Shown here in pieces: positions 611 through 59,279 of a stretch of 64,000 nucleotides of DNA. The first letter of the stretch is position 1. Each line of letters begins with the position of its first letter. The notes beneath the pieces were generated by a model. It was not told the origin of the DNA. It saw only the letters and a list, made by a program, of their open reading frames with translations, and ran no database searches. This DNA is from Escherichia phage JLBYU43. The position numbers were made by a program, and so were the translations under genes. The DNA lies in the sequence record NC_105512.1. One strand, written 5' to 3'.

Positions 611-644
611 ATAATTTCATTTCGAAATCCTTCTATTAAATTGG

Positions 645-719
645 AAGCGGGTGTAGGAATCGAACCTACCTCTTTCTAGCTTATGAGACTAGCGATCTCT
701 ACCAGAGATCTAACCCGCA
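645..719 (-). tRNA. tRNA with CAT anticodon (Met or Ile2)
   Basis: Minus-strand cloverleaf: T-arm GTAGG-TTCGATT-CCTAC, anticodon loop CTCATAA, D-stem GATC/GATC, CCA encoded at 642-644. Position 1-72 is a T-T mismatch. Confidence 0.6.
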
Positions 720-728
720 ATTGTTTGG

Positions 729-803
729 TCTCCGTGGGAGGATTTGAACCCCCGACCCTACCGCCCCAAACGGAACGCTCTGGCCAAACTGAGCTACACG
801 GAG
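729..803 (-). tRNA. tRNA-Pro (TGG)
   Basis: Acceptor CTCCGTG/CACGGAG, anticodon loop TTTGGGG, T-loop TTCAAAT, CCA encoded at 726-728. Confidence 0.7.
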
Positions 804-835
804 AATATTCTTTGTTAACTCACTTTATAAGATAT

Positions 836-864
836 ATTATACAGAGAATTAAGTGAAATAGCAA
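836..864 (-). promoter_or_regulatory. sigma70-type promoter (TTGCTA-17-TATAAT)
   Basis: Reverse complement reads TTGCTA, 17-nt spacer, TATAAT; directs minus-strand transcription into tRNA-Pro and the CAT tRNA. Confidence 0.55.
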
Positions 865-1121
865 ATGAATTTTTAATAAATTTACTTATTGCGTAGGCCA
901 CCTGGAGGGTTCAAGCCCCACGGCTGACAAAGAAGTTTGCGAGACTTCTCTTAAATGCCAGAATAGACCCGCCGATCTATCGGAACCTACATAATAAGTA
1001 AACTTTCGTTTACCTACACCTACCTGGTCGGGAGGATTTTCAGCGACTAGAACCGGCCGGAAACTCATCGCCTTGTTTACCCTGTAGTCCCACTATAAGT
1101 GACGCGACCTACAAAGATTTG

Positions 1122-1193
1122 GTGCGGTCGGAGGGAATCGAACCCTCAACTTCTGGTTGGCAACCAAAAATTATACCTTTTAACTACGAACGC
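1122..1193 (-). tRNA. tRNA-Gly (GCC)
   Basis: Acceptor GCGTTCG/CGACCGC with one mismatch, anticodon loop TTGCCAA, T-arm GAGGG-TTCGATT-CCCTC, CCA encoded at 1119-1121. Confidence 0.65.
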
Positions 1194-1409
1194 ATAATGA
1201 GTCAATCTAGGTAGGACTTGAACCTACTATCACTTGTGCGGATTTACGAGAACCATTCTTTCACTCGAATCGAACGAGCTTCTACCCTCGGCAAGCTGGT
1301 GTCCCCTCTCCACCACGCTAGAATGATAATTAATGCCTGCTCCTTTGAATCAAGAAGTCCACCCCGGACTTTGGGTCTTTGCAGTACATCACGCTGCTCT
1401 GATGTTTGG

Positions 1410-1483
1410 TACACCCACTAGGACTTGAACCTAGAACCCTCCGCTTAAGAGGCGGTAGCTCTAACCAATTGAGCTATGGATGT
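1410..1483 (-). tRNA. tRNA-Lys (CTT)
   Basis: Acceptor ACATCCA/TGGGTGT, D-arm GCTC-AATTGGTTA-GAGC, anticodon loop CTCTTAA, T-arm CTAGG-TTCAAGT-CCTAG, CCA encoded at 1407-1409. Confidence 0.6.
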
Positions 1484-1492
1484 ATAATTTGG

Positions 1493-1569
1493 CGGTACTA
1501 AGGGTAATCGAAACCCTACCTCTCCCGTGACAGGGGAGTACCATTACCAAGCCAGCCCCGATCGCATAA
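1493..1569 (-). tRNA. tRNA-Asp (GTC)-like element with degenerate D-arm
   Basis: Clean anticodon hairpin CTCCC-CTGTCAC-GGGAG and T-arm AGGGT-TTCGATT-ACCCT, 3' acceptor TAGTACC, discriminator G, encoded CCA. No canonical D-stem; only a weak 5' acceptor (GGGGCTG or GGTACTC) can be paired. Confidence 0.35.
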
Positions 1570-1574
1570 TTTAT

Positions 1575-1760
1575 TTACTCAGCTTTGAGTTTTTCGATAG
1601 CTTCCTCAACCTCTTTTAGAGCTTCACGACGCTCTACTTGACCTTGAAGTTCTTCAAGAAGTTCAGCTTTCAGAGCCTTAATAATATTACCACGAACCTT
1701 AATATTATTAATCATATTATCACGATCAGCTTCTAGTCGAGCAATTGCACGAGTTGTCAT
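1575..1760 (-). CDS. hypothetical small coiled-coil protein (61 aa)
   Basis: ORF-track ORF embedded between tRNAs; charged heptad-like sequence (ALKAELLEELQGQVERREALKEVEEAIEKLKAE). Confidence 0.4.
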   Translation of the reverse strand: MTTRAIARLEADRDNMINNIKVRGNIIKALKAELLEELQGQVERREALKEVEEAIEKLKAE

Positions 1761-1790
1761 ATCTATTTCCTCAGTTGTTAGTGAAATTGG

Positions 1791-1873
1791 CGGGCCGTGT
1801 AGGAGTTGAACCTACTTTATCCTTGCGGATACGGATTAACAGTCCGGCGCTTAAACCGTTCAGCCAACGACCC
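1791..1873 (-). tRNA. tRNA-Asn (GTT) with enlarged variable region
   Basis: Anticodon arm CGGACTGTTAATCCG matches the E. coli tRNA-Asn arm as recalled; acceptor GGGTCGT/ACGGCCC; T-arm GTAGG-TTCAACT-CCTAC; CCA at 1788-1790. About 15 nt (ATCCGCAAGGATAAA, itself a small hairpin) lie between anticodon stem and T-stem. Confidence 0.55.
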
Positions 1874-2029
1874 TAAATTTATATTGCTGACTAGGATTTT
1901 CACCTAGACGGAGTTAGCACCGTAGCGTGTAGCGGCATACCTCTCCAAACCGTGCCTCATCTTTCAATTACTGAGGCAGTGTTCCTACGCGTGCCTGAAC
2001 TGTTTTAACAATTCTTTCAGCAAATTGGA

Positions 2030-2102
2030 CGACCGCATGAGATTCGAACTCACATAAAAAGGATTTGCAATCCTTCGCCTAAGCCATTCAGCCAACAGTC
2101 GA
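2030..2102 (-). tRNA. tRNA-Cys (GCA)
   Basis: Acceptor CGACTGT/GCGGTCG with G-T wobbles, anticodon arm AAGGA-TTGCAAA-TCCTT, T-arm GTGAG-TTCGAAT-CTCAT, CCA at 2027-2029. Confidence 0.6.
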
Positions 2103-2285
2103 TTTATCTTGTTTTTCGAGATCTTCAAATTCTAGATTTATAGAATGTCCTATGGACCTAGCATAATAGCTATCTCCAGCATCAGTATCTCTTTCAATTT
2201 GGTACAACCTGTACGCAACGATCGTACCTCTTCTCCTTTTCAGGGAGATACTAATCCTTCTCAGTTAAAGTTGCATATTATCTGG

Positions 2286-2353
2286 CAGGGGTAAAGGTAT
2301 TCGAAACCTTTTCATGGGTTTTGGAGGCCCACTAGCAACCTATGCGTACCCCA
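2286..2353 (-). tRNA. tRNA-Trp (CCA), short D region
   Basis: Anticodon arm TGGGC-CTCCAAA-ACCCA and 3' end TACCCCTGCCA resemble the E. coli tRNA-Trp as recalled; T-arm AAGGT-TTCGAAT-ACCTT; only about 67 nt with a reduced D-arm. Confidence 0.5.
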
Positions 2354-2365
2354 ATTATTAATTGG

Positions 2366-2437
2366 CACACCCACGGAGAATTGAACTCCGATTCTCAGAT
2401 TGAAATCCTGATGTCCTAACCATTAGACGATAGGTGC
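2366..2437 (-). tRNA. tRNA-Glu (TTC)
   Basis: Acceptor GCACCTA/TGGGTGT, D-arm GTCT-AATGGTTA-GGAC, anticodon arm TCAGG-ATTTCAA-TCTGA, T-arm CGGAG-TTCAATT-CTCCG, CCA at 2363-2365. Confidence 0.65.
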
Positions 2438-2448
2438 ATTAATTTTGG

Positions 2449-2526
2449 TGGGGGATGGAGGACTCGAACCTCCGCGTGGTATACCCGGTCTACAGCCAGG
2501 CGCCGTCGCCACTGAGCCAATCCCCC
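2449..2526 (-). tRNA. tRNA-Tyr (GTA)
   Basis: Perfect acceptor GGGGGAT/ATCCCCC, anticodon arm CCTGG-CTGTAGA-CCGGG, 10-nt variable region, T-arm GGAGG-TTCGAGT-CCTCC, CCA at 2446-2448. Confidence 0.65.
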
Positions 2527-2650
2527 ATATTTGAATGAAAAGTAAGTCGGTTAAACTCAAAGTGGAATATTTCAGGAAATCCTGACTTTACCCCTAAAAG
2601 CAACTCGCTTAATTACTTCTCATTCAGATATGTTTCCAAAGTAGATAACT

Positions 2651-2679
2651 ATTATATCAAGTTTTATGGCACTGAGCAA
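2651..2679 (-). promoter_or_regulatory. sigma70-type promoter (TTGCTC-17-TATAAT)
   Basis: Reverse complement gives TTGCTC, 17 nt, TATAAT; the -35 element lies inside the left arm of the 13-bp inverted repeat. Confidence 0.45.
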
Positions 2680-2707
2680 GTCAGATTTTAAAGAACTTGC
2701 TCAGTGC
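2669..2707. repeat. perfect 13-bp inverted repeat (hairpin with 13-nt loop)
   Basis: GCACTGAGCAAGT at 2669-2681 and ACTTGCTCAGTGC at 2695-2707 are exact reverse complements; sits just downstream of the minus-strand CDS ending at 2716. Confidence 0.6.
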
Positions 2708-2715
2708 TATATCAG

Positions 2716-2991
2716 TTAATCAAATGAAGGAGTGACTTTCAAAGTGAATGGAAGTTCGAATACCTCTTCACCTTCATCAGTAACAGTGACTACTCGACCC
2801 TCTAGATTATTCATGCTGATTTCAACATCAGCCGTAGCATCAGGAGCCATACCAGCCTCAATACATTGAGCTTTGATCTCTGGAAGAAGTTCTACATTGT
2901 AGAAATAAAGCCACTCGATCTCACCTTCCCAACCACCCCAGGATTTACATACTGAGCTTTCAATACCAGTTGCTGTAACACGTTTTGACAT
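2716..2991 (-). CDS. hypothetical protein (91 aa)
   Basis: ORF-track ORF; start moved to the ATG at 2989-2991, preceded by GAGAGG RBS and the promoter at 3021-3050. Confidence 0.5.
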   Translation of the reverse strand: MSKRVTATGIESSVCKSWGGWEGEIEWLYFYNVELLPEIKAQCIEAGMAPDATADVEISMNNLEGRVVTVTDEGEEVFELPFTLKVTPSFD

Positions 2992-3020
2992 TCTGATTCC
3001 TCTCATCAATTTATATAACT

Positions 3021-3050
3021 ATTATATCAGAAATTTAAGGCAAAAGGCAA
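3021..3050 (-). promoter_or_regulatory. sigma70-type promoter (TTGCCT-18-TATAAT)
   Basis: Reverse complement: TTGCCT, TAAATTTCTGA..., TATAAT, then the conserved leader ATAAATTGATGAGAGG. Confidence 0.55.
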
Positions 3051-3080
3051 GTACATTTTTAAAAATTCTGTTTGGAGGAG

Positions 3081-3287
3081 TTAAAGACCGGATTCATCAG
3101 CCAGATCTAGACCAATAAGGGTGATTGCCATGATTGCAGCAGCCTGTTCTTTTTCACTCACATCTTTAGCAGACGCGATAATCTTTTCAAATTGTGATTT
3201 AAAATCTGCTACTTCAGCTTCTAAACCAGCTTCAGCAATAATGCCTTTCACCATAATACGCTGCGTCATAATTTCAGGATTTGCCAT
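3081..3287 (-). CDS. hypothetical protein (68 aa)
   Basis: ORF-track ORF; a 55-aa ORF (3284-3448) overlaps its start with ATG/TGA overlap. Confidence 0.45.
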   Translation of the reverse strand: MANPEIMTQRIMVKGIIAEAGLEAEVADFKSQFEKIIASAKDVSEKEQAAAIMAITLIGLDLADESGL

Positions 3288-3465
3288 TTGTTTTCTCCAG
3301 TTTCATTTTTAGTATTTTGCAAACAAAGTCAATATCTTCATCCGTGCCTAGATCTCTATCTTCAAGGGTTGCCTTGAAATTTTTTGTTAGTTCCATAAGA
3401 ATAACTTCCCTGGAACGACGTGTTGGCGGAGGTGGATGTCTATACATCTTAATTCCTTAATTTGG

Positions 3466-3537
3466 TGGGTCGGAGGAGAATCTAACTCCTACTCGTTAGC
3501 TTATGAGGCCACCGCTTTAACTTTAAGCTACCGACCC
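3466..3537 (-). tRNA. tRNA with CAT anticodon (Met, fMet or Ile2)
   Basis: Perfect acceptor GGGTCGG/CCGACCC, anticodon loop CTCATAA on an imperfect stem, T-arm AGGAG-TTAGATT-CTCCT, CCA at 3463-3465. Confidence 0.55.
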
Positions 3538-3546
3538 TATGTTTGG

Positions 3547-3632
3547 AGGAAGAAGTGGGAATCGAACCCACAAGGCTATATTTCAAACTGACAGATTAGC
3601 AATCTGCTGCAATACCGTTATGCTATTCTTCC
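3547..3632 (-). tRNA. tRNA-Ser (GCT), type II
   Basis: Perfect acceptor GGAAGAA/TTCTTCC, anticodon arm GCAGA-TTGCTAA-TCTGT, long variable arm, T-arm GTGGG-TTCGATT-CCCAC, CCA at 3544-3546. Confidence 0.6.
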
Positions 3633-3647
3633 GAATTTATAAGATAT

Positions 3648-3676
3648 ATTATATTAGAAATTTAGCTTCATAGCAA
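3648..3676 (-). promoter_or_regulatory. sigma70-type promoter (TTGCTA-17-TATAAT)
   Basis: Reverse complement: TTGCTA, 17 nt, TATAAT; overlaps the 3' end of CDS 3654-4172 and precedes the Ser and CAT tRNAs. Confidence 0.55.
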
Positions 3677-4172
3677 GAAAATTTTTCAAGTTTTCGGTAG
3701 ACATCTCATCCACATCTACAGGAGAAACAAATCCATTTAATTGTTTAGCAAATTTTTCACCTGCAGGATCATTATCCCCAACAGCTACCAATTTAAAAGG
3801 TAGTAATTTCAATTGCTTTAACAACGCTTTTCCAGGGGAAGAACCCAACATTGCTAGGGCTGGATAACCAGCATTATGTAATGCAACTGCCTTAAATACA
3901 GATTCAGCAATCAATACTACTTTTTCATCTCCATTGAGAGTTTCTAGTCCCCATACACACTGGGTAGTAGAATAAGTAAAATATTTAGCTTCAAAGGGAC
4001 ACTTACCATGACCTTTTGGAGCAGAAGGATTATAAGTTTGATAGCCCCTCAACATCCCAGAGAAATCATATAACGGGACTGTTAGCCATCCTTCCGGACT
4101 TAACCAGCAATGATATTTTTCTGTATCAAATCCCCTAGATAGAAGGTGCTGTGTTAGCTCATCAACACTCAT
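3654..4172 (-). CDS. hypothetical protein, possible Toprim-like fold (172 aa)
   Basis: ORF-track ORF with AGGAG RBS upstream; LVAVGDNDPAGEKFAKQL resembles a Toprim acidic motif. Weak assignment. Confidence 0.5.
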   Translation of the reverse strand: MSVDELTQHLLSRGFDTEKYHCWLSPEGWLTVPLYDFSGMLRGYQTYNPSAPKGHGKCPFEAKYFTYSTTQCVWGLETLNGDEKVVLIAESVFKAVALHNAGYPALAMLGSSPGKALLKQLKLLPFKLVAVGDNDPAGEKFAKQLNGFVSPVDVDEMSTENLKNFLAMKLNF

Positions 4173-4213
4173 ATTTGATCTCCTAGTTAGTTTTATAAAT
4201 ACATTATATAGAA

Positions 4214-4244
4214 AAGCCCGCGCTCTCGGAGGAAACGCGGGCTT
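4214..4244 (-). terminator. intrinsic terminator hairpin
   Basis: AAGCCCGCG/CGCGGGCTT 9-bp GC-rich stem with 13-nt loop, followed on the minus strand by TTCTAT; immediately 3' of CDS 4268-5284. Confidence 0.55.
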
Positions 4245-4267
4245 GTTTCGAAGATTACGTGTAACTA

Positions 4268-5284
4268 TTACTTATTACGCATATCCATAATCATCTGGCC
4301 ATCATAACCAGTACCTACAACAGTCTGAGGAACGCCACCCTGATATTTTTCAGCGCGTTTCATATCAACTTCCAGCTGCTTCCAACGAATCATTTCAGGA
4401 GTAATGGTACGTTGCAGAGCGGCGTTAGCTTCAGCTTCTTTCTTAGCTGCGTACAGTTTAGCATCTGCGTCACGTTCGTTAGCTACTGCCATATTTTCAC
4501 GAGCAGAACGATCAGCTTCAGCTTGCTTAACTTTCTGCTGTGCTTCTTGTTCAACACGAGCTAGTTCAGCTTTTGCAGCGTTAACTTGTTCTTCACGAAC
4601 TTTTGTGTTTTGTACCTGTTCCATGATTACCGGTGGCAGAGTAATATCCTGAAGGAATACTTGCTTAACGGTGTAACCATAAGGACGCGCGTACTCTTCT
4701 ACTTCTTGCTGAATAGCGGTTTGCAGTTGAGCCTGAATCTTAGCGTCGAACAGATCTTGTGCTTTTGGTACAGACTTACCAAACTCACGAATCGTAGACA
4801 GCATCTTCTCTTCAACGTACTTGTTCAGAGCTTGATCCTGAGTACCTGCGTTAATACGGTTAATCGGTGCCTTAGAACCATCAAACTGCAACATAACAGT
4901 CAAGTCAACAGTGGATTTAAACTTATCCTGGCTAGGAACCTGAAGTTTATCTAATTTTACAGCAATATCTTTTGTACTAAAAGTATCGAAAGATGCAAAC
5001 GGGTTTACAAGATGGAAACCAGGCAATACTGGATTAGGATCTACTTTACCCAGAAATGTTTGGGTTTTAACCGTACCATCAGAAACAATAGTATATGAAT
5101 TAAAAGCTAGAATCAAGCCTGCTAAACCAACTACAGCACCAATACCCCAACGTTTAATAGTATATGAATTAAAAGCTAGAATCAAGCCTGCTAAACCAAC
5201 TACAGCACCAATACCCCAACGTTTAATAGTACGAATTACTTTCTGCTCAGAAGTCAGTTCTTTCATATTTTTAGTATTAAACAT
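4268..5284 (-). CDS. SPFH/band-7 (HflC/prohibitin-like) membrane protein with duplicated N-terminal TM segment
   Basis: N-terminal hydrophobic helix, SPFH-like core and a long coiled-coil C-terminus rich in E/A/Q/K; AAGGAAA RBS before the ATG at 5282-5284. Confidence 0.65.
   Translation of the reverse strand: MFNTKNMKELTSEQKVIRTIKRWGIGAVVGLAGLILAFNSYTIKRWGIGAVVGLAGLILAFNSYTIVSDGTVKTQTFLGKVDPNPVLPGFHLVNPFASFDTFSTKDIAVKLDKLQVPSQDKFKSTVDLTVMLQFDGSKAPINRINAGTQDQALNKYVEEKMLSTIREFGKSVPKAQDLFDAKIQAQLQTAIQQEVEEYARPYGYTVKQVFLQDITLPPVIMEQVQNTKVREEQVNAAKAELARVEQEAQQKVKQAEADRSARENMAVANERDADAKLYAAKKEAEANAALQRTITPEMIRWKQLEVDMKRAEKYQGGVPQTVVGTGYDGQMIMDMRNK
5092..5229. repeat. perfect direct tandem duplication, 2 x 69 bp, in-frame within CDS 4268-5284
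   Basis: 5092-5160 and 5161-5229 are identical (TATATGAATTAAAAGCTAGAATCAAGCCTGCTAAACCAACTACAGCACCAATACCCCAACGTTTAATAG); encodes KRWGIGAVVGLAGLILAFNSYTI twice. Confidence 0.9.
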
Positions 5285-5321
5285 ATGTTTCCTTTGTTTT
5301 AGTTACAGTTAATAAAATTGG

Positions 5322-5393
5322 CCGAGGTGACAGGATTCGAACCTGCATAAAGGAATTTAGAAGACTCCTGCCTATCCCTTAGACTACACCCCG
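5322..5393 (-). tRNA. tRNA-Arg (TCT)
   Basis: Acceptor CGGGGTG/CACCTCG, anticodon arm GGAGT-CTTCTAA-ATTCC, T-arm GCAGG-TTCGAAT-CCTGT, CCA at 5319-5321. Confidence 0.65.
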
Positions 5394-24833: not shown

Positions 24834-25262
24834 ATGTTTAATAATGTATTCTCTAAAGAAGCTAACCCAATTTTGGTTAACTTTTGGCGTACTCTCCCAG
24901 CTAGCCTGTATAATGAGGCTATTAACTCTTTGAAAATATGGTGTGAGAATAACGAAATCTCCTTTGCTTTTAAAGATGATATTGATGAGGCCCCTTGTAT
25001 TGGTTTAATTGTTCAGGTAGAGGAGGGTCTTGAAGAGATTGTCGGCTGGAAAGAGTTAGATGAAATGGGCTTAGTTTTTGCATTAAATTATAAGCTGTTT
25101 ATGCCTGCTAAGCATCGCCTCGTTGTTAACTATAAAACTAGTGAGTCTCCTGGTTTTCAGGTTAATGAACGTGAGGGCTGGTCATATTCGCCCGAGGAAG
25201 TAAATGAAGGGATTCAGAAACTTCGTCGTTTCGGGTATATGATCCCAGGTTTAACTGCTTAA
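24834..25262 (+). CDS. hypothetical protein, paralog A (142 aa)
   Basis: ORF-track ORF; C-terminal 80 aa align with CDS 25272-25667 (W.EL..MGL..A.N...F.P......ESP..QV......Y.......G...R.G...PGL). Confidence 0.55.
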   Translation: MFNNVFSKEANPILVNFWRTLPASLYNEAINSLKIWCENNEISFAFKDDIDEAPCIGLIVQVEEGLEEIVGWKELDEMGLVFALNYKLFMPAKHRLVVNYKTSESPGFQVNEREGWSYSPEEVNEGIQKLRRFGYMIPGLTA

Positions 25263-25271
25263 GGAGGCAGA

Positions 25272-25667
25272 ATGGAACAAGTATTTTGGCGTCAGATAGA
25301 TCCTAGTTTGGTAGAGCGTGCTGAGGGGCTCCTTGCACATTGGTTGGGGGTTGACAAGGTTAGTGTAACATTTCCGTTTACTTCTGTAACAGACCCTAGT
25401 GTAGGTGTATTTGTGGACGAAGATGAAGATGATGGTTGGGAAGCTGACTGGAATGAATTGTCCAGCATGGGCTTGATTGTTGCCATCAACTTCTCTATAT
25501 TCCATCCACGTGGCTTAGCCATTACACGTGACCCCGAAACTGGTGAATCCCCTTATCTTTTGCAAGTAGAAGATGATATTTGGGAGTACACCGAAGATAT
25601 TCTCGAAGAAGCTAAAGGTCAATTAAATCGCATTGGGATCTATGTTCCAGGCCTAAATGATGATTGA
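25272..25667 (+). CDS. hypothetical protein, paralog B (131 aa)
   Basis: ORF-track ORF with AAGGAGG RBS; paralogous to CDS 24834-25262. Confidence 0.55.
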   Translation: MEQVFWRQIDPSLVERAEGLLAHWLGVDKVSVTFPFTSVTDPSVGVFVDEDEDDGWEADWNELSSMGLIVAINFSIFHPRGLAITRDPETGESPYLLQVEDDIWEYTEDILEEAKGQLNRIGIYVPGLNDD

Positions 25668-25758
25668 TTTTCATTAGCCCAATCCTGATTACCGAGTCAT
25701 TTTGGCTCGGTTTTCTCTGTGCTCAAAGACACTGATAGCACCTTCGTAAAAAATTTTG

Positions 25759-25787
25759 TTGCACGATGCTCAAAATCTTGGTATAAT
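25759..25787 (+). promoter_or_regulatory. sigma70-type promoter (TTGCAC-17-TATAAT)
   Basis: TTGCAC at 25759-25764, 17-nt spacer, TATAAT at 25782-25787; followed by about 590 nt without a credible ORF. Confidence 0.55.
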
Positions 25788-26380
25788 ATTTATATTGAAT
25801 TGAGAGACATTAGTAAAAATTGATTTTGCTAATTTTTCTTAGTGAAGCTGACAATGGATTTACGGCGAGAGTGGTCGATGACCCGTAAATAGCTGCATAA
25901 GGTACGTTGCTAGAGCTTTATGAAAAAGTTTTTCTTGTTTACAATCCGCGATACGGAACAGTTAGGCTGCCCCATTAAGGGTTGTTTTAACTATTACTAG
26001 TGTTTATATTGCATTAGTTAATCTTCAATTAAGTGATCTGTGTACCCTGAATTCGGAAAGGTAAATCCAAACCGTGCATATTTAGCTCGTTATATAGGCA
26101 GAGCTTTATATGGGGGTGCGAACGAAAAGAGCAGCGAATGGCGGCACGTACAGTAGTCACCTACCAATAGGATAGCGAGGACAAATAGAATCGGCTTAGC
26201 GGCCAATGACCTAGGTTCTATTCTGTATATGAGCGAAGAGAGCACAGCACTGAGATATGATAACTTATTCATATTGTTTGATGATAATTGATGTTTACGT
26301 AAATAGTAGTAATAGTTGTTCTATTCTTTCTGAATAGTCCTAAAGAAAAGATTTCGATTAATCAACACAGGAGTATTGTT

Positions 26381-29170
26381 GTGTTTTCTATCCTCCAAGG
26401 TCACGCCGGGTTTTCTCGTGATTTAGCAACAGGTATTTGGCGAGAAATCAAAGCGGAAGATTATACCTTTGCCAAACGATTCTCGAAAGAGCATCCAGAA
26501 GGTAAACCAGCTTCTATGCCCTTCAAATTTGATGTAATAGAAGAGCACGACCCACAAAGCCTTGCTGAAATGTTACCACTTATGAGACGTTTAACGTCTG
26601 ACCCTCATATCGTTGTGGTACGAGGTCGATGTCTTGCACCTAAAAATAATGTGCGACGTAAGAAAGGTAACTTTAATGTATCCAACCCTAGCAATATTAT
26701 TGCTATGGACGTGGATGGTATCCTGGATACCGGTGGGTACGACAAGTTTAATCTTGTAGGTATGGCCCGTCACATTATTAAGATGTTGAATAGTATTAGT
26801 GAGGACATGTTTCCTCTTGATGCAGGGTTTATTGCTCATGCATCGTCTTCGGCTGGCCTAAAACCAGGTATCCGAATGCACTTAATGCTAGAATCTAACG
26901 TCAAGGTAACTCAAGGTCAGTTAAAGTTCTTATTTACGTCTATCAATGATAGTAGTAAGCAAAAATTCGGTTTTGATATTGCCGACTTAGCTTATTATTC
27001 ATCTGTCCAGCTTCACTATTTTGCCGACCCTTTATTTAGCGATGGTATTGTTGATCCGTTTAAAGCGGAGAGTAAGCCACGTCTGGTGTATGTTAAAGGT
27101 TCGAAAGTAAATTTGCCTAATAATCTGGTTGACTATGAAACAACTAGAGGGGAGTTTAAGGAAGAGTTTTATTCTTTACTTGATCAAATTAAAGGCAAAA
27201 AGATTGCTTCTGATAAAGTAGAAGAAACCATCAGCGAATTGGAAGAAGCTGAGGATGGGGTGTACTTGCGTATTATCCCCAAACTATACCATAGAGCATT
27301 AGAGGATGGTGTTGATTTCGCATGGCTAGAACGTGAGATTAAACCCGCTTTATCTGAATATATTGCAACTAAAGATAACAGTCGTAATATTCAAGATTAC
27401 TTTAATAACGGTCGTAAGCAGGCTCTCAAAGCGTTTGTTAATAATTCTAAACGCGAGATTCCATTAAATCTGAAAGGTGTTCCTCTTAAGAAATTAGAAG
27501 TGGATTCTCCACCAGAAGTTCCATACCTGAAGATTAACATTGTGCCCCCAAAAGGGCATATAACATTTGTTAAGGCAAGTCTTGGTACTGGCAAAACTAC
27601 GGCAGTAACTAAATGGCTGGACGCAGGTGTTCTTCCTGGCAACTTTTTAGCAGTTACAAATACTAGAGCGCTGGTATCTTCAAACGCTAAGAAATTTAGC
27701 GCAGGACAATATGATAAGTCTGTAGATATGCTCAACTTTAAACGTGGAGCTATTGATCGTATGTCCACAACTATTCACTCTTTGCATAAGTTCAAGAGTT
27801 TTATTGGTCAAATTGATGCAATCTTTATCGATGAATGTGATGCTGTAATGAATGACCTATTATTCGCCCCGGTTGTTAAACAGCGTCGTGAATGTATTCA
27901 AGTTCTACGTGACATCCTCATGACAGCTAAAACTGTAATTCTATCAGATGGTGATATTAGTGCCGAAACTATTGAAGCATATGGTTCTCTAATTGATTTT
28001 GATAAACCAGTAGCATTTTATAATCATCACCGTAAAATGCTGTCAAAAGCTCATGCTTATGAGTTCCCTGACGAATCCAGTATTTGGGTTGCACTTCAAA
28101 CATCTCTAGAGATGGGTGAGAAGTCAATCCTAGTATCTGACTGTGGACCTGATGAATTAAATGAAAAGGGAATGGCATTACGTCGTAATACCGGTGCGTT
28201 AGTTAAAGAAATTCACTCAAACTCTACGTCTGATGTAGATATCCGACGTATTCTGGATTATACAACTAATGAGCTAATTGATCAACAGATTGATTGTTTG
28301 TTATGTAGTCCATCTGTAACGAGTGGTGTTGACTTTAACTATTTTGATAACGTATTCGTAATCACTAGAACCTCAAACCAAGCGCCAAACATGCGTTTCC
28401 AAGCAATCAGGCGCGACCGTGGTGCTCAGAACATTTATTATTTTATTGATAAATCTACGAGTGGATTTTCTGCAGGTTCCGAGCAATATAATATTGACGA
28501 GGGTTGGATTGAGTTAGCCCAACAACTGTACGCACGTCGTCGTGAGCTGGAATCTAGAAACTATACCAGTACTTTGCGTTATTATCTTCTCGATCAAGGT
28601 GCAACTATTGATATCTTCAGTGAAAGCTGGGGGACTATCGAAGGTGCAGGCAAAGAGTATACAGAAGAGCGAATCAAAGCCATTTTGTATTCAACTCCTG
28701 ATTATTGTGCTCCACGCCATGCAGATGCGTATGAAGCTAAACTACTTCTTGTTCGCTATTATCATCTTGAGTCTATTAAAGATGTAACAGTTGAGCATGT
28801 TGAGCAATATATCAAGGATAAACCTAATGATCGAGCTGCATTCTTCCATAAAATGCACGAGATGTTCTGGGAAGATATTAAGAAGTGTTCAAATGTCACT
28901 ATCAAACCATTCATAGAAGCTCTGAAAGGTAAGAAGAAAGATTTCTTCCTTAAAACAGGTCAGAGTGCTAACCCAAAATACGCCAGAATGTATCTTGGTA
29001 TGATGGGTATTGGTAAGGATATGAACACGGAGAATATTGTAGACTGGTACAGAACCTATTGTAAAATCGAATGTATGCCAATCCCGTATAAGTTTATGAC
29101 TGATGAGGAGAAACATATGCATGATGAAGCAATGGCAGAGCTAGGCGCTAGAAATGACAGTGAAGAATAA
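26381..29170 (+). CDS. P-loop NTPase, putative replication initiation or helicase-like protein (929 aa, GTG start)
   Basis: Walker A SLGTGKTTAV and DExD-like Walker B IFIDECDAV in the central region; ACAGGAG RBS before the GTG start. Confidence 0.7.
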   Translation: MFSILQGHAGFSRDLATGIWREIKAEDYTFAKRFSKEHPEGKPASMPFKFDVIEEHDPQSLAEMLPLMRRLTSDPHIVVVRGRCLAPKNNVRRKKGNFNVSNPSNIIAMDVDGILDTGGYDKFNLVGMARHIIKMLNSISEDMFPLDAGFIAHASSSAGLKPGIRMHLMLESNVKVTQGQLKFLFTSINDSSKQKFGFDIADLAYYSSVQLHYFADPLFSDGIVDPFKAESKPRLVYVKGSKVNLPNNLVDYETTRGEFKEEFYSLLDQIKGKKIASDKVEETISELEEAEDGVYLRIIPKLYHRALEDGVDFAWLEREIKPALSEYIATKDNSRNIQDYFNNGRKQALKAFVNNSKREIPLNLKGVPLKKLEVDSPPEVPYLKINIVPPKGHITFVKASLGTGKTTAVTKWLDAGVLPGNFLAVTNTRALVSSNAKKFSAGQYDKSVDMLNFKRGAIDRMSTTIHSLHKFKSFIGQIDAIFIDECDAVMNDLLFAPVVKQRRECIQVLRDILMTAKTVILSDGDISAETIEAYGSLIDFDKPVAFYNHHRKMLSKAHAYEFPDESSIWVALQTSLEMGEKSILVSDCGPDELNEKGMALRRNTGALVKEIHSNSTSDVDIRRILDYTTNELIDQQIDCLLCSPSVTSGVDFNYFDNVFVITRTSNQAPNMRFQAIRRDRGAQNIYYFIDKSTSGFSAGSEQYNIDEGWIELAQQLYARRRELESRNYTSTLRYYLLDQGATIDIFSESWGTIEGAGKEYTEERIKAILYSTPDYCAPRHADAYEAKLLLVRYYHLESIKDVTVEHVEQYIKDKPNDRAAFFHKMHEMFWEDIKKCSNVTIKPFIEALKGKKKDFFLKTGQSANPKYARMYLGMMGIGKDMNTENIVDWYRTYCKIECMPIPYKFMTDEEKHMHDEAMAELGARNDSEE

Positions 29171-29387
29171 AAAATGGGAAACAAGGAAGTTTCCAGTAAA
29201 AGAGCGTAAAGTTCCTGTTTACGACACTTCGGAAAAGCTATGTAGGGTGGTACCACACAGATTAGCTGGCATCCCTAACATATCCGAGTGGTTACTTAAA
29301 CAACGGAAAACTAACGTGTCTCTTCGCATCGGCTTTGAGTTAGATAAAGTCTATGCTGAACTTGCTTCTTTGCTCAAGGAACAATAA
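29154..29387 (+). CDS. hypothetical protein (77 aa)
   Basis: ORF-track ORF overlapping the end of the 929-aa gene; stop overlaps the next start. Confidence 0.4.
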   Translation: MTVKNKKWETRKFPVKERKVPVYDTSEKLCRVVPHRLAGIPNISEWLLKQRKTNVSLRIGFELDKVYAELASLLKEQ

Positions 29388-29959
29388 TGTTTATAAGAAT
29401 TCCCGAATTTCCTGACTATGCAGTGAATGAAAATGGAGATGTATACTCTTTTCTCTCCAACAAATTTCTTGCTCCAGGTCAAAATACTGCGGGGTACTTA
29501 CAAGTTAACTTAATGAAAGATGGCTCCCCTATAAATGTGAGAGTGCATAGGCTAGTGGCTTATTGTTTTGGTCTACTTCCTGAGTTAGAATCAGAGTTGG
29601 TAGTAGACCATATAAATGATAATAAGTTAGATCCTAGATTAGTTAACCTACAGGTATTAACCCACAAAGCTAATGCAATAAAATTCCATAATAAAAACTG
29701 GAGAGAACATCCAGATTTCTTAGCAGAGATTAAGAAATTAGAAAGTATGGGTATAACTAAAGCAGCTGCATCTTATAGGTGTAGGGCTATGTTTAAATAT
29801 AATGTGGTTATTCCTTCCGGTGATACTCTAACCTTAGAGTTAATAGAATCTACATATCAGAAAACCAATTCTTGGAGAAAAACCGCGAGAGTACTTGGAT
29901 TTAAAAGCGCTCCTGCCATTCTTTATAGATATAACAAGCTGAAAGCAGCTTCTTTATAA
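29387..29959 (+). CDS. HNH homing endonuclease
   Basis: HNH_3-like motifs (GYLQVNL..HRLVAYCF...VDHINDNKLDPRLVNLQVLTHKAN). Confidence 0.7.
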   Translation: MFIRIPEFPDYAVNENGDVYSFLSNKFLAPGQNTAGYLQVNLMKDGSPINVRVHRLVAYCFGLLPELESELVVDHINDNKLDPRLVNLQVLTHKANAIKFHNKNWREHPDFLAEIKKLESMGITKAAASYRCRAMFKYNVVIPSGDTLTLELIESTYQKTNSWRKTARVLGFKSAPAILYRYNKLKAASL

Positions 29960-33429: not shown

Positions 33430-34209
33430 ATGAAAATCGAAATTCCAACACAATGTCCCTCTTGTGGTTCTAAGCTAGATCTTGTCAACGGACAATTATT
33501 CTGTCGGAATAAGTCCAACTGTCCAGCGCAATCAAGTAAGTTAATTGAGAACTTCTGTACAAAAATGAAGTTAAAGGGCTTTGGTCCAAAAACTATTGAG
33601 AAGCTGGAGCTGACGAAGATTTCAGAACTATTTTACCTAACCGAAGAAGATTTGGTTAGAGCCGTGGGTAGCAAGGTTGCCGCTAAGTTAATTAGCGAAT
33701 TAAATACTAAAGTTCGCGGAGACATTGACTTTGGTTCAGTTCTCGGTTCTTTAGGAATCCCTCTAATCGGAGAGGTTGCAGCAAAGAAATTATCCCAAAA
33801 TTGCACTAGCTTCCACGATGTGAAGGCTGACGGCAAGGCTGGAGAAAATTATAAAGCCTGGCTAAATTCCCCACAAGGCAAGGATGTTATCGAATTACCG
33901 TGGAAATTTTCAACTGGTATTAGGGGCACTAAAGCTAATATCATCATTACAGATGAATTAGTTGCCCAGCCAAATGGAATCGCGGTATGTATTACCGGAT
34001 CTTTGCAAGATTTTGCAAATCGAACGGATGCAACAAACTATTTAGAAAGTCTAGGGTATACGGTTAAGAAATCAGTTACTAAAGACGTCAAATACCTAAT
34101 CTGTGAGGATGAATCAAAACGTTCTTCCTCATCTTATAAGAAAGCCGAAACGAATGGGATAGAAATCCTGTCGATTAAAGAACTATTGGAGAAAAATAAT
34201 AATGTCTAA
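33430..34209 (+). CDS. ligA: NAD-dependent DNA ligase, C-terminal half (Zn finger, HhH, BRCT)
   Basis: Zinc-finger CPSCGS...C..C, helix-hairpin-helix region and BRCT-like IAVCITGSL; ATG at 33430 preferred over the TTG at 33427. Confidence 0.75.
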   Translation: MKIEIPTQCPSCGSKLDLVNGQLFCRNKSNCPAQSSKLIENFCTKMKLKGFGPKTIEKLELTKISELFYLTEEDLVRAVGSKVAAKLISELNTKVRGDIDFGSVLGSLGIPLIGEVAAKKLSQNCTSFHDVKADGKAGENYKAWLNSPQGKDVIELPWKFSTGIRGTKANIIITDELVAQPNGIAVCITGSLQDFANRTDATNYLESLGYTVKKSVTKDVKYLICEDESKRSSSSYKKAETNGIEILSIKELLEKNNNV

Positions 34210-34969
34210 ACTGAACTGGAACGTAGAAGGTGTAACCGAGTCTCTGAAAGCAAAAGCCACTGCTCTGGGTGTTGCTGTAATCTCTCAAGAACAAGTAGCT
34301 GCTATCGCTGCTGAACTGGCCGCTGAAACTGGCAAAGATGTTACCGCTCGCTCTGTTGGCTCTAAACTGCGTAAAGAAGGTTTTGAAGTACAGAAAGCTA
34401 ATGAAGTACAGAAATCTCCGTGGACTCCTGAGCAGGAAGCTGAACTGGTTGATTTCCTGAACGCTCATGCTGGTCAGTATACCTATGCTGAAATCGCTGC
34501 TGCTGTAGCTGGTGGTCAGTTCGGTGCTAAGCAGGTACAGGGTAAGATTCTGAGCCTGGAAATGACCGCTTCTGTTAAGCCAACCGAAAAAGCTGCCGCT
34601 GTTCGTTCCTTCACTCCGGATGAAGAAACTGATTTTGTTAATCAGGTTGTTGCTGGTGCTACTATTGAAGCTATCGCTGCTCACTTCGGTCGTAATATCA
34701 AGCAGATCCGTGGTAAAGCTCTGAGCCTGCTTCGTGAAGGTCGTATCGCTGCTATGCCGGTACAGGAAACCTCAAGTGCTAAAACTCGTGAAGATCTGTT
34801 AGAAGGTCTGGATTTGGTTAACATGACTGTTGCTGAGATCGCCGAGAAAACTGGTAAGTCTGAGCGCGGTGTTAAATCTATGCTGTCTCGTCGTGGTCTG
34901 GTTGCTAAGGACTATGATGGTGCCGCTAAGCGTGCTAAACTGGATGCAAAAGCTGCGGCTGCTGAATAA
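34202..34969 (+). CDS. repeat-containing protein with four HTH-like repeats, host-like codon usage (possible T5 D5-like DNA-binding protein)
   Basis: Four tandem units sharing the pattern [hydrophobic]AEIAxxxG....R.VKS.LSRRGL; Ala-rich; E. coli-optimal codons. D5 identity is a guess from size and position. Confidence 0.6.
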   Translation: MSKLNWNVEGVTESLKAKATALGVAVISQEQVAAIAAELAAETGKDVTARSVGSKLRKEGFEVQKANEVQKSPWTPEQEAELVDFLNAHAGQYTYAEIAAAVAGGQFGAKQVQGKILSLEMTASVKPTEKAAAVRSFTPDEETDFVNQVVAGATIEAIAAHFGRNIKQIRGKALSLLREGRIAAMPVQETSSAKTREDLLEGLDLVNMTVAEIAEKTGKSERGVKSMLSRRGLVAKDYDGAAKRAKLDAKAAAAE

Positions 34970-58559: not shown

Positions 58560-59170
58560 AGACTTTCCCGTAAATTTAATGAGATGTTGGAGTATGTTCC
58601 GTTATTATTTAGTGTAGATCCAAAAGCATCACCATTCATGAGTTTTGTTCTAAATAGTATTCCATTAAATACTGGCTTCTCCGCTCCAGTAGTAGTTATA
58701 AATAAATCAGGATATAAGTTTATGTACCATGTATTACCTGATTTGCTGAATGATGTTATTTTATATACTTTTGGGTGGCTAGACAGTTTAAATAAATCCC
58801 CAGGTTTTGGAGTACCTGTGAGAAGTCCCTTTGTATCCATGGTTATATTAGAACCTTTCTGTCCAGCAGGTATATTTACTAGATTAGTATTACCTCTAAC
58901 TCTGAAAGCTTCGTATTGAGGTAGTATAACATCTATATAACCACCAGTCCTTTTGTACTCTAGAATAAAAGCATCTAGAACACTATATTCATCTGGAAAT
59001 AATTCTGGATAAGAAATATTTATACCCCAGTATTGAGCAGATACCTTAACTTCGTTAACTTTACCATTTGGTAACTCATCACGAATTACTGGGTCATTAT
59101 CAATCAGGTTAACACTTTCGAATCCTAATCCTGAAAGTTCTGGATTCGTGTATGGGTCTGGTAATCTCAT
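58556..59170 (-). CDS. distal tail protein Dit (T5 pb9-like)
   Basis: 204-aa ORF directly downstream of the tape measure gene, the conserved Dit position. Confidence 0.6.
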   Translation of the reverse strand: MRLPDPYTNPELSGLGFESVNLIDNDPVIRDELPNGKVNEVKVSAQYWGINISYPELFPDEYSVLDAFILEYKRTGGYIDVILPQYEAFRVRGNTNLVNIPAGQKGSNITMDTKGLLTGTPKPGDLFKLSSHPKVYKITSFSKSGNTWYINLYPDLFITTTGAEKPVFNGILFRTKLMNGDAFGSTLNNNGTYSNISLNLRESL

Positions 59171-59253
59171 AGTTAATTTCTCCTCTTTAATAACAATATT
59201 ATAATAGTATTAGAAAATTTTATCAAGAAATTTTTATTTTTCCATAAAGAAAA

Positions 59254-59272
59254 GGAGGACTCAAAGTCCTCC
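59254..59272 (-). terminator. intrinsic terminator 3' of the tape measure gene
   Basis: GGAGGACT/AGTCCTCC 8-bp stem with 3-nt loop followed on the minus strand by TTTTCTTTAT. Confidence 0.65.
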
Positions 59273-59279
59273 TCCAGTT

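Follow-up and report, generated by a model that had tools for sequence, protein, structure and literature searches.

The locus considered here raises the question of what a T5-like phage (Tequintavirus) specifies in a long stretch without recognizable genes that lies directly upstream of its replication helicase gene. The stretch belongs to Escherichia phage JLBYU43 (NC_105512.1), of which 64,000 nucleotides were analyzed (hereafter called the window), and it extends from the stop codon of a homologue of T5.107 (25667) to the GTG start codon (26381) of a 929-residue protein, the homologue of T5.108, namely the helicase D2 or obp. This gap of 713 nt (25668-26380) is the largest part of the window without an open reading frame (ORF) of at least 65 residues, the tRNA cluster aside; its longest ORFs have 60 and 43 residues on the minus strand and 38 and 34 residues on the plus strand. 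A first-pass annotation, made from the letters of the window, was therefore right in calling the region free of ORFs (all are of 60 residues or less). The comparative evidence presented below indicates that the gap specifies a long folded RNA, the base-pairing of which is preserved across distant relatives of T5 and the main feature of which is a predicted domain of ~330 nt (25988-26318) closed by a helix of ~35 bp, hereafter P1.

Architecture and Covariation of the RNA Domain

All elements of the domain are described on the plus strand of the window, which carries one of two allele types, A and B, that occur among T5-like phages (see below). P1 consists of an AU-rich 5′ strand (25988-26031) pairing with a 3′ strand at 26278-26318, in the form of 19 + 16 bp with small internal loops between them; it corresponds to two inverted repeats in the sequence, 25989-26006/26300-26317 (I1) and 26014-26031/26285-26302 (I2), and emerges also from the helices predicted by RNAalifold and from the swap test described below. 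Within P1, the segment 26033-26043 pairs with 26242-26250: GUG at 26033-26035 (P2a) is followed by a 2-nt bulge, AU, and by CUGUGU at 26038-26043 (P2), the partners being GCACAG at 26242-26247 for P2 and CAC at 26248-26250 for P2a. The core enclosed by these strands (26044-26241) holds helix P3 (26044-26048 with 26113-26117), hairpin P3b (26084-26091 with 26097-26105), hairpin P4 with a GAAA-type loop (approximately 26117-26133), the junction GCGAAUGG (26134-26141), which reads GAGAAGUG in other lineages, and helix P6 (26184-26192 with 26214-26222). P3, P3b, P4 and P6 all covary. Hairpin P6a, GGCU-UAGC-GGCC (26193-26204), carries the invariant motif CUUAGCGG at 26195-26202. In type A sequences RNAalifold gives a different partner for the 3′ strand of P3, and the interior between P3 and P6 is thus only partly resolved. 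A possible pseudoknot between the UUAGC loop and GCUAA was considered and rejected, the latter being absent in L038 and L177 (L numbers designate the loci of relatives throughout).

The evidence that carries this model is the pattern of compensatory changes in two alignments. The first comprised 32 T5-like sequences, in which 31 pairs were counted in the outer part of P1, P2a/P2, P6 and P6a; the second, broader one comprised 10 sequences, namely type B variants together with L164, L165 and L177, and covered P2a/P2, P3, P3b, P4 and P6a. For the 32 sequences RNAalifold gave a fold of 41 pairs, 15 of which show compensatory changes; among the counted pairs, 992 of 992 alignment cells held standard pairs and 10 pairs had changed on both sides, the covariation score being 0.320 against 0.173 in shuffles (0/500). 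When the 3′ partner was slid by one to three columns, only 30-47% of the cells remained paired. The broader alignment gave a comparable picture, with 25 pairs that were 99.6% paired, 14 of which had changed on both sides (vs. 4.6 ± 1.5 in shuffles, 0/500), and with 34-56% pairing in the slid-partner control. Since shuffle controls ignore the relatedness of the sequences, the slid-partner and swap controls weigh more in our assessment.

The clearest case is that of P2a/P2, in which all nine pairs are kept in the 11 variants that could be tabulated in register, through nine different sequences of P2: CUGUGU/GCACAG, CUGCGU/GCGCAG, CUGCAU/GUGCAG, CUACAC/GUGUAG, CUACAU/GUGUAG, CUGCGC/GCGCAG, CUAGAA/UUCUAG, CUGUAU/GUACAG and UUGCUA/UAGCAA. 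P2 is fully paired (6/6) in all of more than 50 sequences, and none of its pairs is broken in either alignment. P3 varies in a similar manner (CCCGU/ACGGG, CCCAU/AUGGG, UUCGU/GCGAA, GCCGU/ACGGC, UGCGG/CCGCG and ACCCU/GGGGU), five of the eight pairs counted in P6 have changed on both sides with none broken, and the pairs flanking the P6a loop covary as well, for example to GACU..GGUC in L165. P1 shows a compensatory change from A-U to G-C with a G·U intermediate in T5. Because this helix cannot be aligned in register across lineages, its 5′ and 3′ flanks were swapped among eight lineages; cognate duplexes had energies of -26 to -37.5 kcal/mol (mean -32.8) against -13.6 ± 4.4 kcal/mol for non-cognate ones. 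The flanks are ~50-66% identical across lineages, and a lineage-specific closing helix was found in eight of the eight lineages tested. Long closing helices comparable to P1 were also predicted in each of the 10 sequences folded, which represent seven lineages.

This pattern bears directly on the possibility that the gap has no dedicated function, being either mosaic debris of homing-endonuclease traffic and recombination or the seat of unannotated small proteins. HNH genes do come and go near obp, and some records annotate ORFs of 30-50 residues in the gap. Against this, compensatory changes keep 99.6-100% of the pairs, the distance between the two P2 strands stays within 209-224 nt in the ten lineages or allele types compared, and no ORF is conserved. 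An element without function is strongly disfavored by the covariation, and we find it hardly credible.

Strand Dependence of the Fold

Of the 31 positions counted, 7 have G·U or U·G as their most frequent pair, which would turn into an A·C mismatch on the opposite strand. Folding of the domain gave -90.8 kcal/mol on the plus strand (z = -3.3) and -64.8 kcal/mol on the minus strand (z = -1.3); the values of z for the whole leader, that is, the region between promoter and start codon, were -2.4 and -1.75. Because of the many G·U pairs, the full fold is expected to form only in the plus strand, which is the sense of the mRNA. Thermodynamic significance is confined to the T5-like sequences, on their plus strand. 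A structured RNA, which the first-pass annotation had listed among several options with a check of structure conservation, is thus strongly supported by covariation in two alignments, by a closing helix in 8/8 lineages and by the restriction of G·U pairs to the plus strand.

The same inverted repeats are necessarily present in the DNA, and they might act at that level, as hairpins in single-stranded or extruded DNA equivalent to an ssi or primosome-assembly signal or to oriS* of herpes simplex virus (HSV). UL9 binds the hairpin form of oriS, and the neighboring gene encodes a UL9-like helicase. The octamer GTTCGCAC, which we take to be the core of HSV-1 UL9 box I, occurs once in the 64 kb of the window, at 26116-26123 (minus strand), hence within the RNA domain and beside the UL9-like helicase gene. 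We rejected this match as a candidate site: it is at chance level, at least one match being found in 48 of 100 shuffles, and it is missing from type B. Moreover, G·U (in DNA, G·T) accounts for about one fifth of the conserved pairs and is allowed on the plus strand only, the minus-strand fold is much weaker, and a multi-helix fold of 330 nt with GNRA-type loops is typical of RNA rather than of known signals in single-stranded DNA. A DNA-level element appears very improbable on these grounds.

Alleles, Relatives and Distribution

At megablast level, 442 phage records match the gap and its flanks (25600-26450), with DT571/2 and Kenya-K44 nearest at ~95-96% identity; a more sensitive blastn search with the gap alone (25668-26380) matches 522 records. 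The counterpart of the leader region in T5 lies at 58,999-59,544 of NC_005859. In a comparison of 12 aligned T5-like sequences, the ends of the leader are conserved whereas its central ~300 nt occur in two very different alleles, type A (including the window, T5 and BF23) and type B (including GEC_N5, IME178 and SP3). The two types share 23-60% nucleotide identity across 26001-26300 vs. 78-98% in the flanks; folded separately, they nevertheless give the same architecture.

More distant relatives, retrieved from IMG/VR and metagenomes with obp proteins 43-73% identical, have a gap of 600-715 nt that begins with the same terminator and promoter and contains the invariant CUUAGCGG. This motif is unchanged in every T5-like sequence and in L038, L040/41, L164, L165, L166 and L177; in five lineages, 170-186 nt separate it from the start codon. 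The domain is kept across T5 relatives whose hosts are Escherichia, Salmonella, Klebsiella and Providencia. Poor conservation together with absence from related phages would have spoken against a functional element according to the first-pass annotation; the gap is instead retained in relatives down to 27-35% identity of obp. A scan of metagenomes for relatives of obp added two new lineages only. Wherever it occurs, the element immediately precedes obp, in the same orientation, and the genome contains no second copy. HNH genes, an extra ORF and a module of 97 nt are situated either upstream of the promoter or between the first two hairpins of the leader (H0 and H1, see below), and no insertion separates the RNA domain from obp in the relatives compared.

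In Vibrio and Aeromonas phages the gap is bounded by nrdD and obp, which are divergent. An unannotated leader of 712-836 nt precedes obp in the Vibrio phages Brizo, Kronos, VPG01 and Pylo (L167 1205-1916, L181 705-1416, L182 581-1416 and L183 705-1416). Brizo and Pylo share conserved 5′ hairpins and a conserved 3′ end, while their central ~550 nt are 55% identical, a mosaic similar to that of types A and B; one hairpin with likely compensatory changes was recognized by eye. For these phages we claim a leader of similar size and mosaic pattern, as judged from their sequences, and no more. In Aeromonas phage TS3 no genes are annotated in the ~1.6 kb that separate the divergent nrdD and obp (L169 219-1808). 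This stretch has three UUAGCGG motifs, three CGGAAC motifs and one GCUUAGCGG inside a CCCGAAAA/UUUUCGGG stem; to judge by these motifs, the RNA modules may have been multiplied there.

Comparison with Annotated Proteins and Known RNAs

A protein-coding ORF conserved in relatives, the other finding that the first-pass annotation had named as contrary to its proposal, was not found in the gap by either position or sequence. The 38-residue ORF on the plus strand is lost in L004, L010 and L011, where the 60-residue ORF on the minus strand is truncated or absent, and no ORF is common to the type A, type B, L038, L164, L165, L177 and L040 forms. Several GenBank records annotate 'hypothetical proteins' of 30-55 residues in the leader (L004 635-997, L005 595-1124, L009 857-1222 and L168 1221-1845), and one leader ORF of 38 residues is labeled 'putative replication origin-binding protein'; these small coding sequences vary from record to record. 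To judge from this variation, the small annotated proteins of the leader are probably spurious over-predictions.

Searches for known RNAs gave no match to the leader. A scan of the window with Rfam 15 at gathering thresholds, in a set including GOLLD, ROOL, OLE, HEARO, ARRPOF, riboswitches, ribozymes, tmRNA, RNase P, 6S and Y RNA, returned tRNAs only, and a scan of 25600-26450 by E-value had its best hit at the terminator (E = 0.13, 21.6 bits vs. a cut-off of 56 bits). Rfam also found nothing in the leaders of 11 relatives. ARAGORN detected only tRNAs at 642-5393 of the window, and the leader is thus neither a tRNA nor a tmRNA. E. coli genomes contain no match to the leader. A loose pattern, GCTTAGCGGC-N10-40-GYGAAG, retrieved 120 loci from IMG/VR, nearly all by chance; none of the hits outside T5 relatives represented the element, and the P6 stem was present in T5-like contigs only. 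L045, the sole other case with 7/7 positions, was rejected, being GC-rich, coding-looking by eye and devoid of obp. We did not find this leader RNA described in the literature searched; the text of a 2023 survey of more than 10,000 viral candidates (PMC10690425) is silent on it, although its tables may list it. On present comparative evidence, therefore, the leader contains a new, large covariation-supported RNA element before the replication helicase gene of T5-type phages.

From Promoter to Start Codon

The upstream transcription unit T5.106/T5.107 ends in a predicted intrinsic terminator (25691-25718, plus strand), composed of the hairpin ACCGAGTCATTTTGGCTCGGT followed by TTTTCTC. The hairpin (25691-25711) has nine pairs, five of them G-C, with a T tract behind it; it is conserved in relatives, and the records of T5 and BF23 annotate a terminator at the end of the upstream unit. 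A sigma-70 promoter of the T5 early type follows at 25749-25794 on the plus strand, with an A/T-rich upstream tract, a -35 element TTGCAC (25759-25764), a spacer of 17 nt, and a -10 element TATAAT (25782-25787) that is extended by TG at 25779-25780 (TGgTATAAT, 25779-25787). The first-pass annotation had already recognized this promoter at 25759-25787; it is present, conserved, and annotated as 'promoter' directly after the annotated terminator in the RefSeq record of T5 (NC_005859). Our consensus scanner omitted the site because TTGCAC matches TTGACA at only three of six positions. The combination TTGC-N17/18-TATAAT with a downstream '..UUGAGAG' is kept in every lineage examined. Judging by spacing alone, transcription would start near 25794.

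The distance from promoter to start codon of obp is ~587 nt in the window and ~490 nt in T5, in agreement with the earlier description of about 590 nt with only very short ORFs ahead of the ribosome-binding site (RBS) and GTG. Equally well founded was the remark that the region is less AT-rich than typical leaders of this genome, the GC fraction of the gap being 0.34-0.43 vs. ~0.39 for the whole window, a composition like that of coding DNA. The RBS AGGAG (26369-26373) stands 7 nt ahead of the GTG (26381-26383); in relatives the corresponding start codon is ATG or GTG, and M-F-S/T-I-L are the conserved residues behind it. No terminator-like site was detected by the scan of the plus strand between promoter and GTG.

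Several smaller plus-strand elements accompany the large domain. H0 is a 5′-terminal stem-loop (25799-25843, GAGAGACAUUAGUAAAA/UUUUGCUAAUUUUUCUU) in the predicted fold, and counterparts with other sequences are predicted in L038, L164, L165 and L177. The hairpin domain H1 (25941-25985) has an outer stem ACAAUCC/GGGUUGU and an inner stem CAGU/GCUG (25959-25962/25966-25969) with the motif AUACGGAACAGUUAGGCUGC; it is nearly invariant between types A and B, and variants of the motif occur in L038, L164, L165 and L177. P7 (26254-26275, GAUAUGA/UCAUAUU) lies between P2 and the 3′ strand of P1 and has equivalents in AAGUGG/CCACUU (type B), GAGG/CCUC (L038) and GGAGGA/UCUUCC (L177). Directly behind P1, hairpin H8 (26321-26337, CUAUUC-UUUCU-GAAUAG) is identical in sequence between types A and B and has analogues in L038, L164 and L040. 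The UCCU that follows H8 (26338-26341) could pair with the Shine-Dalgarno sequence, but this pairing is weak and non-significant.

Between H0 and H1 the window has an optional insert of 97 nt (25833-25929), flanked by the direct repeat TTTTTCTT (25833-25840 and 25930-25937). The window shares the insert with DT571/2, SP3 and phA11; T5, BF23, PMBT22, GEC_N5, IME178, K15, MM-2 and GSW6 lack it. Of phage records, 522 match the region and 49 have the insert, in single copy and at this locus only, and ~90% of the relatives are without it. It contains the 8-bp stem with a 17-nt loop that the first-pass annotation had singled out, which does exist, with ATTTACGG at 25858-25865 and CCGTAAAT at 25883-25890, two positions away from where it had been placed. 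However, its location in an optional insert makes this hairpin an accessory feature and not the key structure of the leader, the conserved domain lying further downstream at 25988-26318.

A Proposed Leader Acting in Cis and a Possible Processed RNA

The element is read here as the 5′ leader of the D2 mRNA because the plus strand is the sense strand of D2 and because the element stands behind a promoter without an intervening terminator. We tentatively favor a role of this structured leader in cis, on the expression or processing of D2, and from the sequence evidence would give it somewhat less than an even chance of being correct. Its position between promoter and start codon on the sense strand and a structure backed by compensatory changes are both in line with such a role, and we count in its favor that promoter, RNA and obp form an uninterrupted unit in relatives.

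Under this reading the domain would set the amount and timing of D2. H0 and H8, which look like end-protecting stem-loops in the predicted fold, may protect the ends of the mRNA, and heavy folding could spare an untranslated leader of 500-600 nt from termination or degradation. The P1 duplex is a plausible site for RNase III processing, because its length fits established knowledge of RNase III substrates (near-continuous double-stranded RNA of at least ~20 bp); cleavage there would part the domain from the coding RNA. The conserved loops and junctions, finally, might be where a protein docks. D2 itself would be the most attractive choice, in a form of autogenous control, its fastest-evolving part, the first 120 residues, being encoded next to the hypervariable core. 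Sequestration of the RBS by the leader did not reach significance: several lineages have predicted pairings that could occlude the Shine-Dalgarno sequence or the start codon, as an expression platform would, but these vary from lineage to lineage and do no better than shuffles. A pairing of the core with the start region of obp (repeat I5) was rejected, since on inspection it is not conserved in type B or L164.

A number of observations weigh against the cis-acting leader. Transcription, RNA ends and processing are all matters that we infer from the sequence, and local folds of the RBS region are no better than those of shuffled sequences (z = -0.1 to -1.8). The thermodynamic z is non-significant for L038, L166, Brizo and D233, Vibrio phages included. 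The distance from CUUAGCGG to the start codon, otherwise uniform, rises to 285 nt in L040 and 410 nt in L166. A covariance model, R1, built on the P3-P4 half-domain of type-B-like lineages, retrieved, even with filters off, only its own lineages and no type A, L038, L040 or Vibrio/Aeromonas sequences; the homology of the alleles rests consequently on position, equal length, the invariant hairpin and matching helices. The joint variation of RNA type and obp N-terminus could be due to linkage alone. L166, moreover, has a near-consensus promoter, TTGACA-18-TATAAT (~1545-1575), ~35 nt before the ATG of obp and downstream of the CUUAGCGG hairpin; this arrangement suggests that obp can have its own proximal promoter, and the structured part of L166 may then lie outside the obp mRNA.

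This last case also speaks for a reading in which the RNA would act in trans, RNase III cutting P1 and freeing a core of ~290 nt that would work elsewhere, for example as a scaffold, or as a decoy or inhibitor directed at a host factor or defense system, with the site before D2 serving only for early and strong expression. P1 provides a long, near-continuous double-stranded RNA (19 + 16 bp in the window), and a long helix is found in every lineage; RNase III substrates in E. coli include such helices, in the early mRNAs of T7 and in rRNA precursors. The core has turned over far more than its flanks while keeping its structure (23-60% vs. 78-98% identity, and likewise in the Vibrio phages), a pattern expected of an arms race or of modular exchange, and the CUUAGCGG loop is kept across phages of different hosts. 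On the other hand, there is no terminator or independent signal for a 3′ end, the element has a fixed site and orientation upstream of obp that action in trans would not require, and no homologue exists in E. coli genomes or, among the IMG/VR pattern hits, outside T5 relatives. Nor does the loop have a significant target, its exact complement CCGCTAAG having three matches vs. 1.1 expected. Two copies of CCGCTAAG on the plus strand (33680-33687 and 34923-34930) lie inside plus-strand genes and both read GCC GCT AAG. We consider a processed RNA acting in trans rather unlikely.

The D2 Helicase and a Possible Replication Origin

The cis-acting leader that we favor precedes a gene (26381-29170, plus strand) annotated as 'replication origin binding protein', the 929-residue product of which is a superfamily 2 helicase similar to UL9. 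Pfam recognizes Herpes_ori_bp at residues 389-533 and no domain over residues 1-388, structures of HSV UL9 match residues 389-532, and the protein belongs to PHROG 3712, 'replication origin binding'. The bipolar helicase D2 of T5, which has been characterized biochemically, is reported to have the same domain positions and has been proposed to function in replication initiation (PMC3632103). Residues 1-120 (26381-26740) are the least conserved in every comparison, with 38-67% identity; most of the remaining protein is ~70-93% identical, residues 361-420 being also low (60-72%). The hypervariable RNA core thus adjoins the most variable part of obp.

Such a neighborhood suggests a different role, that of a transcription-dependent replication origin, in which the early transcript would form a persistent R-loop or a leading-strand primer beside the gene of the initiator helicase, as in the models of ColE1 RNA II and of T4 oriF/oriG, with D2 acting on the element. 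Besides the proposed initiation function of D2 (PMC3632103), this proposal can draw on the retention of a long non-coding gap before obp across Demerecviridae, even where the upstream neighbor is another gene (nrdD), and on the location of the locus at 48.4-48.9% of the T5 genome. A strong promoter precedes a structured RNA of ~500-590 nt, to which ColE1 RNA II is comparable in scale, and the arms of P1 are AT-rich. A variable core beside a variable part of obp also recalls the specificity pairs of ori and O protein in lambdoid phages.

Several results argue against an origin at this site. No iterons or repeated motifs were found in the gap: the search returned no tandem repeats and only short two-copy matches, and CTTAGCGG and GTTCGCAC are not enriched, which leaves the array of binding sites envisaged by the first-pass annotation without support. 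The GC-skew analysis that it had recommended, a weak test for origins in phages, revealed no change at 25.7-26.4 kb, the sign flips at ~19-20 and ~50 kb following gene orientation. There is no conserved G- or C-run for a hybrid, the GGGGG at 26112-26116 being specific to type A and part of P3, and a consensus scan detected no promoter-like site on the minus strand of the leader, the sole one (25622-25594) lying outside. Selection for helices that contain G·U pairs is explained by the RNA fold alone. Finally, the strand preference in recombitron editing of T5 indicates a dominant unidirectional replication from one genome end (PMC10055335). Taken with the points in its favor, a transcription-dependent origin seems to us unlikely.

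A more specific version of this idea would make the RNA one half of an initiation specificity module, in which the N-terminal 120 residues of obp recognize the cognate RNA or R-loop and so mark the start site, RNA core and obp N-terminus co-evolving as lock and key. Both the recognition and the co-evolution that it implies are doubtful propositions, which we would rank as long shots.

Relation to Known Systems

Viewed as a leader acting in cis, the T5 element resembles the autogenous translational operators of T4, namely the gene 32 leader pseudoknot, the gene 43 operator and the RegA sites, in being a structured leader of a replication mRNA; D2, as the encoded DNA-binding protein, could plausibly bind its own leader in a similar feedback. 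The T4 operators are short, however (tens of nucleotides), and overlap or border the RBS, whereas the T5 domain measures ~330 nt and ends ~60 nt before the start codon. Fremin et al. (2023) also report structured RNA candidates upstream of gp32 genes (PMC10690425).

The P1 duplex resembles the stems recognized by RNase III, such as the R sites in early mRNAs of T7 and the stems of rRNA precursors, in being a long near-perfect duplex that flanks a folded RNA, and a phage early transcript is the presumed setting of P1 as it is that of the T7 R sites. The latter are single hairpins, whereas P1 closes a multi-helix core of 215 nt and its cleavage is suggested by helix length. The likeness to ColE1 RNA II extends to a strong promoter, to an untranslated and folded transcript of ~500-600 nt that adjoins a replication function, and to the conservation of fold rather than sequence, variants sharing one architecture. 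Unlike RNA II, the T5 RNA has no conserved G-run and no detected promoter for an antisense RNA I, and it would run into D2/obp; the parallel is drawn from sequence.

With ROOL, GOLLD, OLE, HEARO and raiA the element shares a length above 300 nt, many covarying helices, conserved loops and junctions, and an association with phages, but it differs from these ornate RNAs by having no Rfam match, an occurrence in Demerecviridae only, a fixed position in an mRNA leader and an AU-rich closing helix. The ori/O modules of lambdoid phages likewise combine a hypervariable element with a variable N-terminal part of the initiator between conserved flanks; lambdoid origins are, however, iteron arrays of double-stranded DNA inside the O gene, while the T5 leader is without iterons and conserves pairing of the RNA type.

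Neighboring Genes

Upstream of the gap, the genes at 24834-25262 and 25272-25667 are tandem paralogues with DUF7415. A patch of the second (25351-25450) has 36-52% identity between phages of type A and type B, against 76-98% in the remainder of the gene. Genes for HNH_3 homing endonucleases cluster around obp, one of them directly downstream (29387-29959), and some relatives have an HNH gene of 150 or 168 residues between the T5.107 terminator and the leader promoter (L007 740-1192, L009 317-769, and ~561-1067 in L018, L021, L025 and L034). Homing-endonuclease traffic may drive the mosaicism of the obp locus. Elsewhere in the window, 11-12 tRNA genes are clustered on the minus strand (642-5393).

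Possible Implications for T5 Replication

The predicted RNA sits in a textbook phage, T5, before the gene of the helicase that presumably initiates replication of its DNA. To our knowledge, bacterial and phage RNAs of more than 300 nt with support from covariation are rare, and each so far has opened new biology; we also know of no T5 replication origin that has been mapped at the sequence level. At the level of annotation, a correction follows for several GenBank records, in which the small 'hypothetical proteins' of the gap are probably not real. The element offers, furthermore, a testable handle on how T5 controls or positions the initiation of its replication, and on why close relatives have exchanged or diversified a leader domain and yet retained its fold. 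If the reading as a specificity module were true, it would amount to an RNA-specified origin in a classical model phage.

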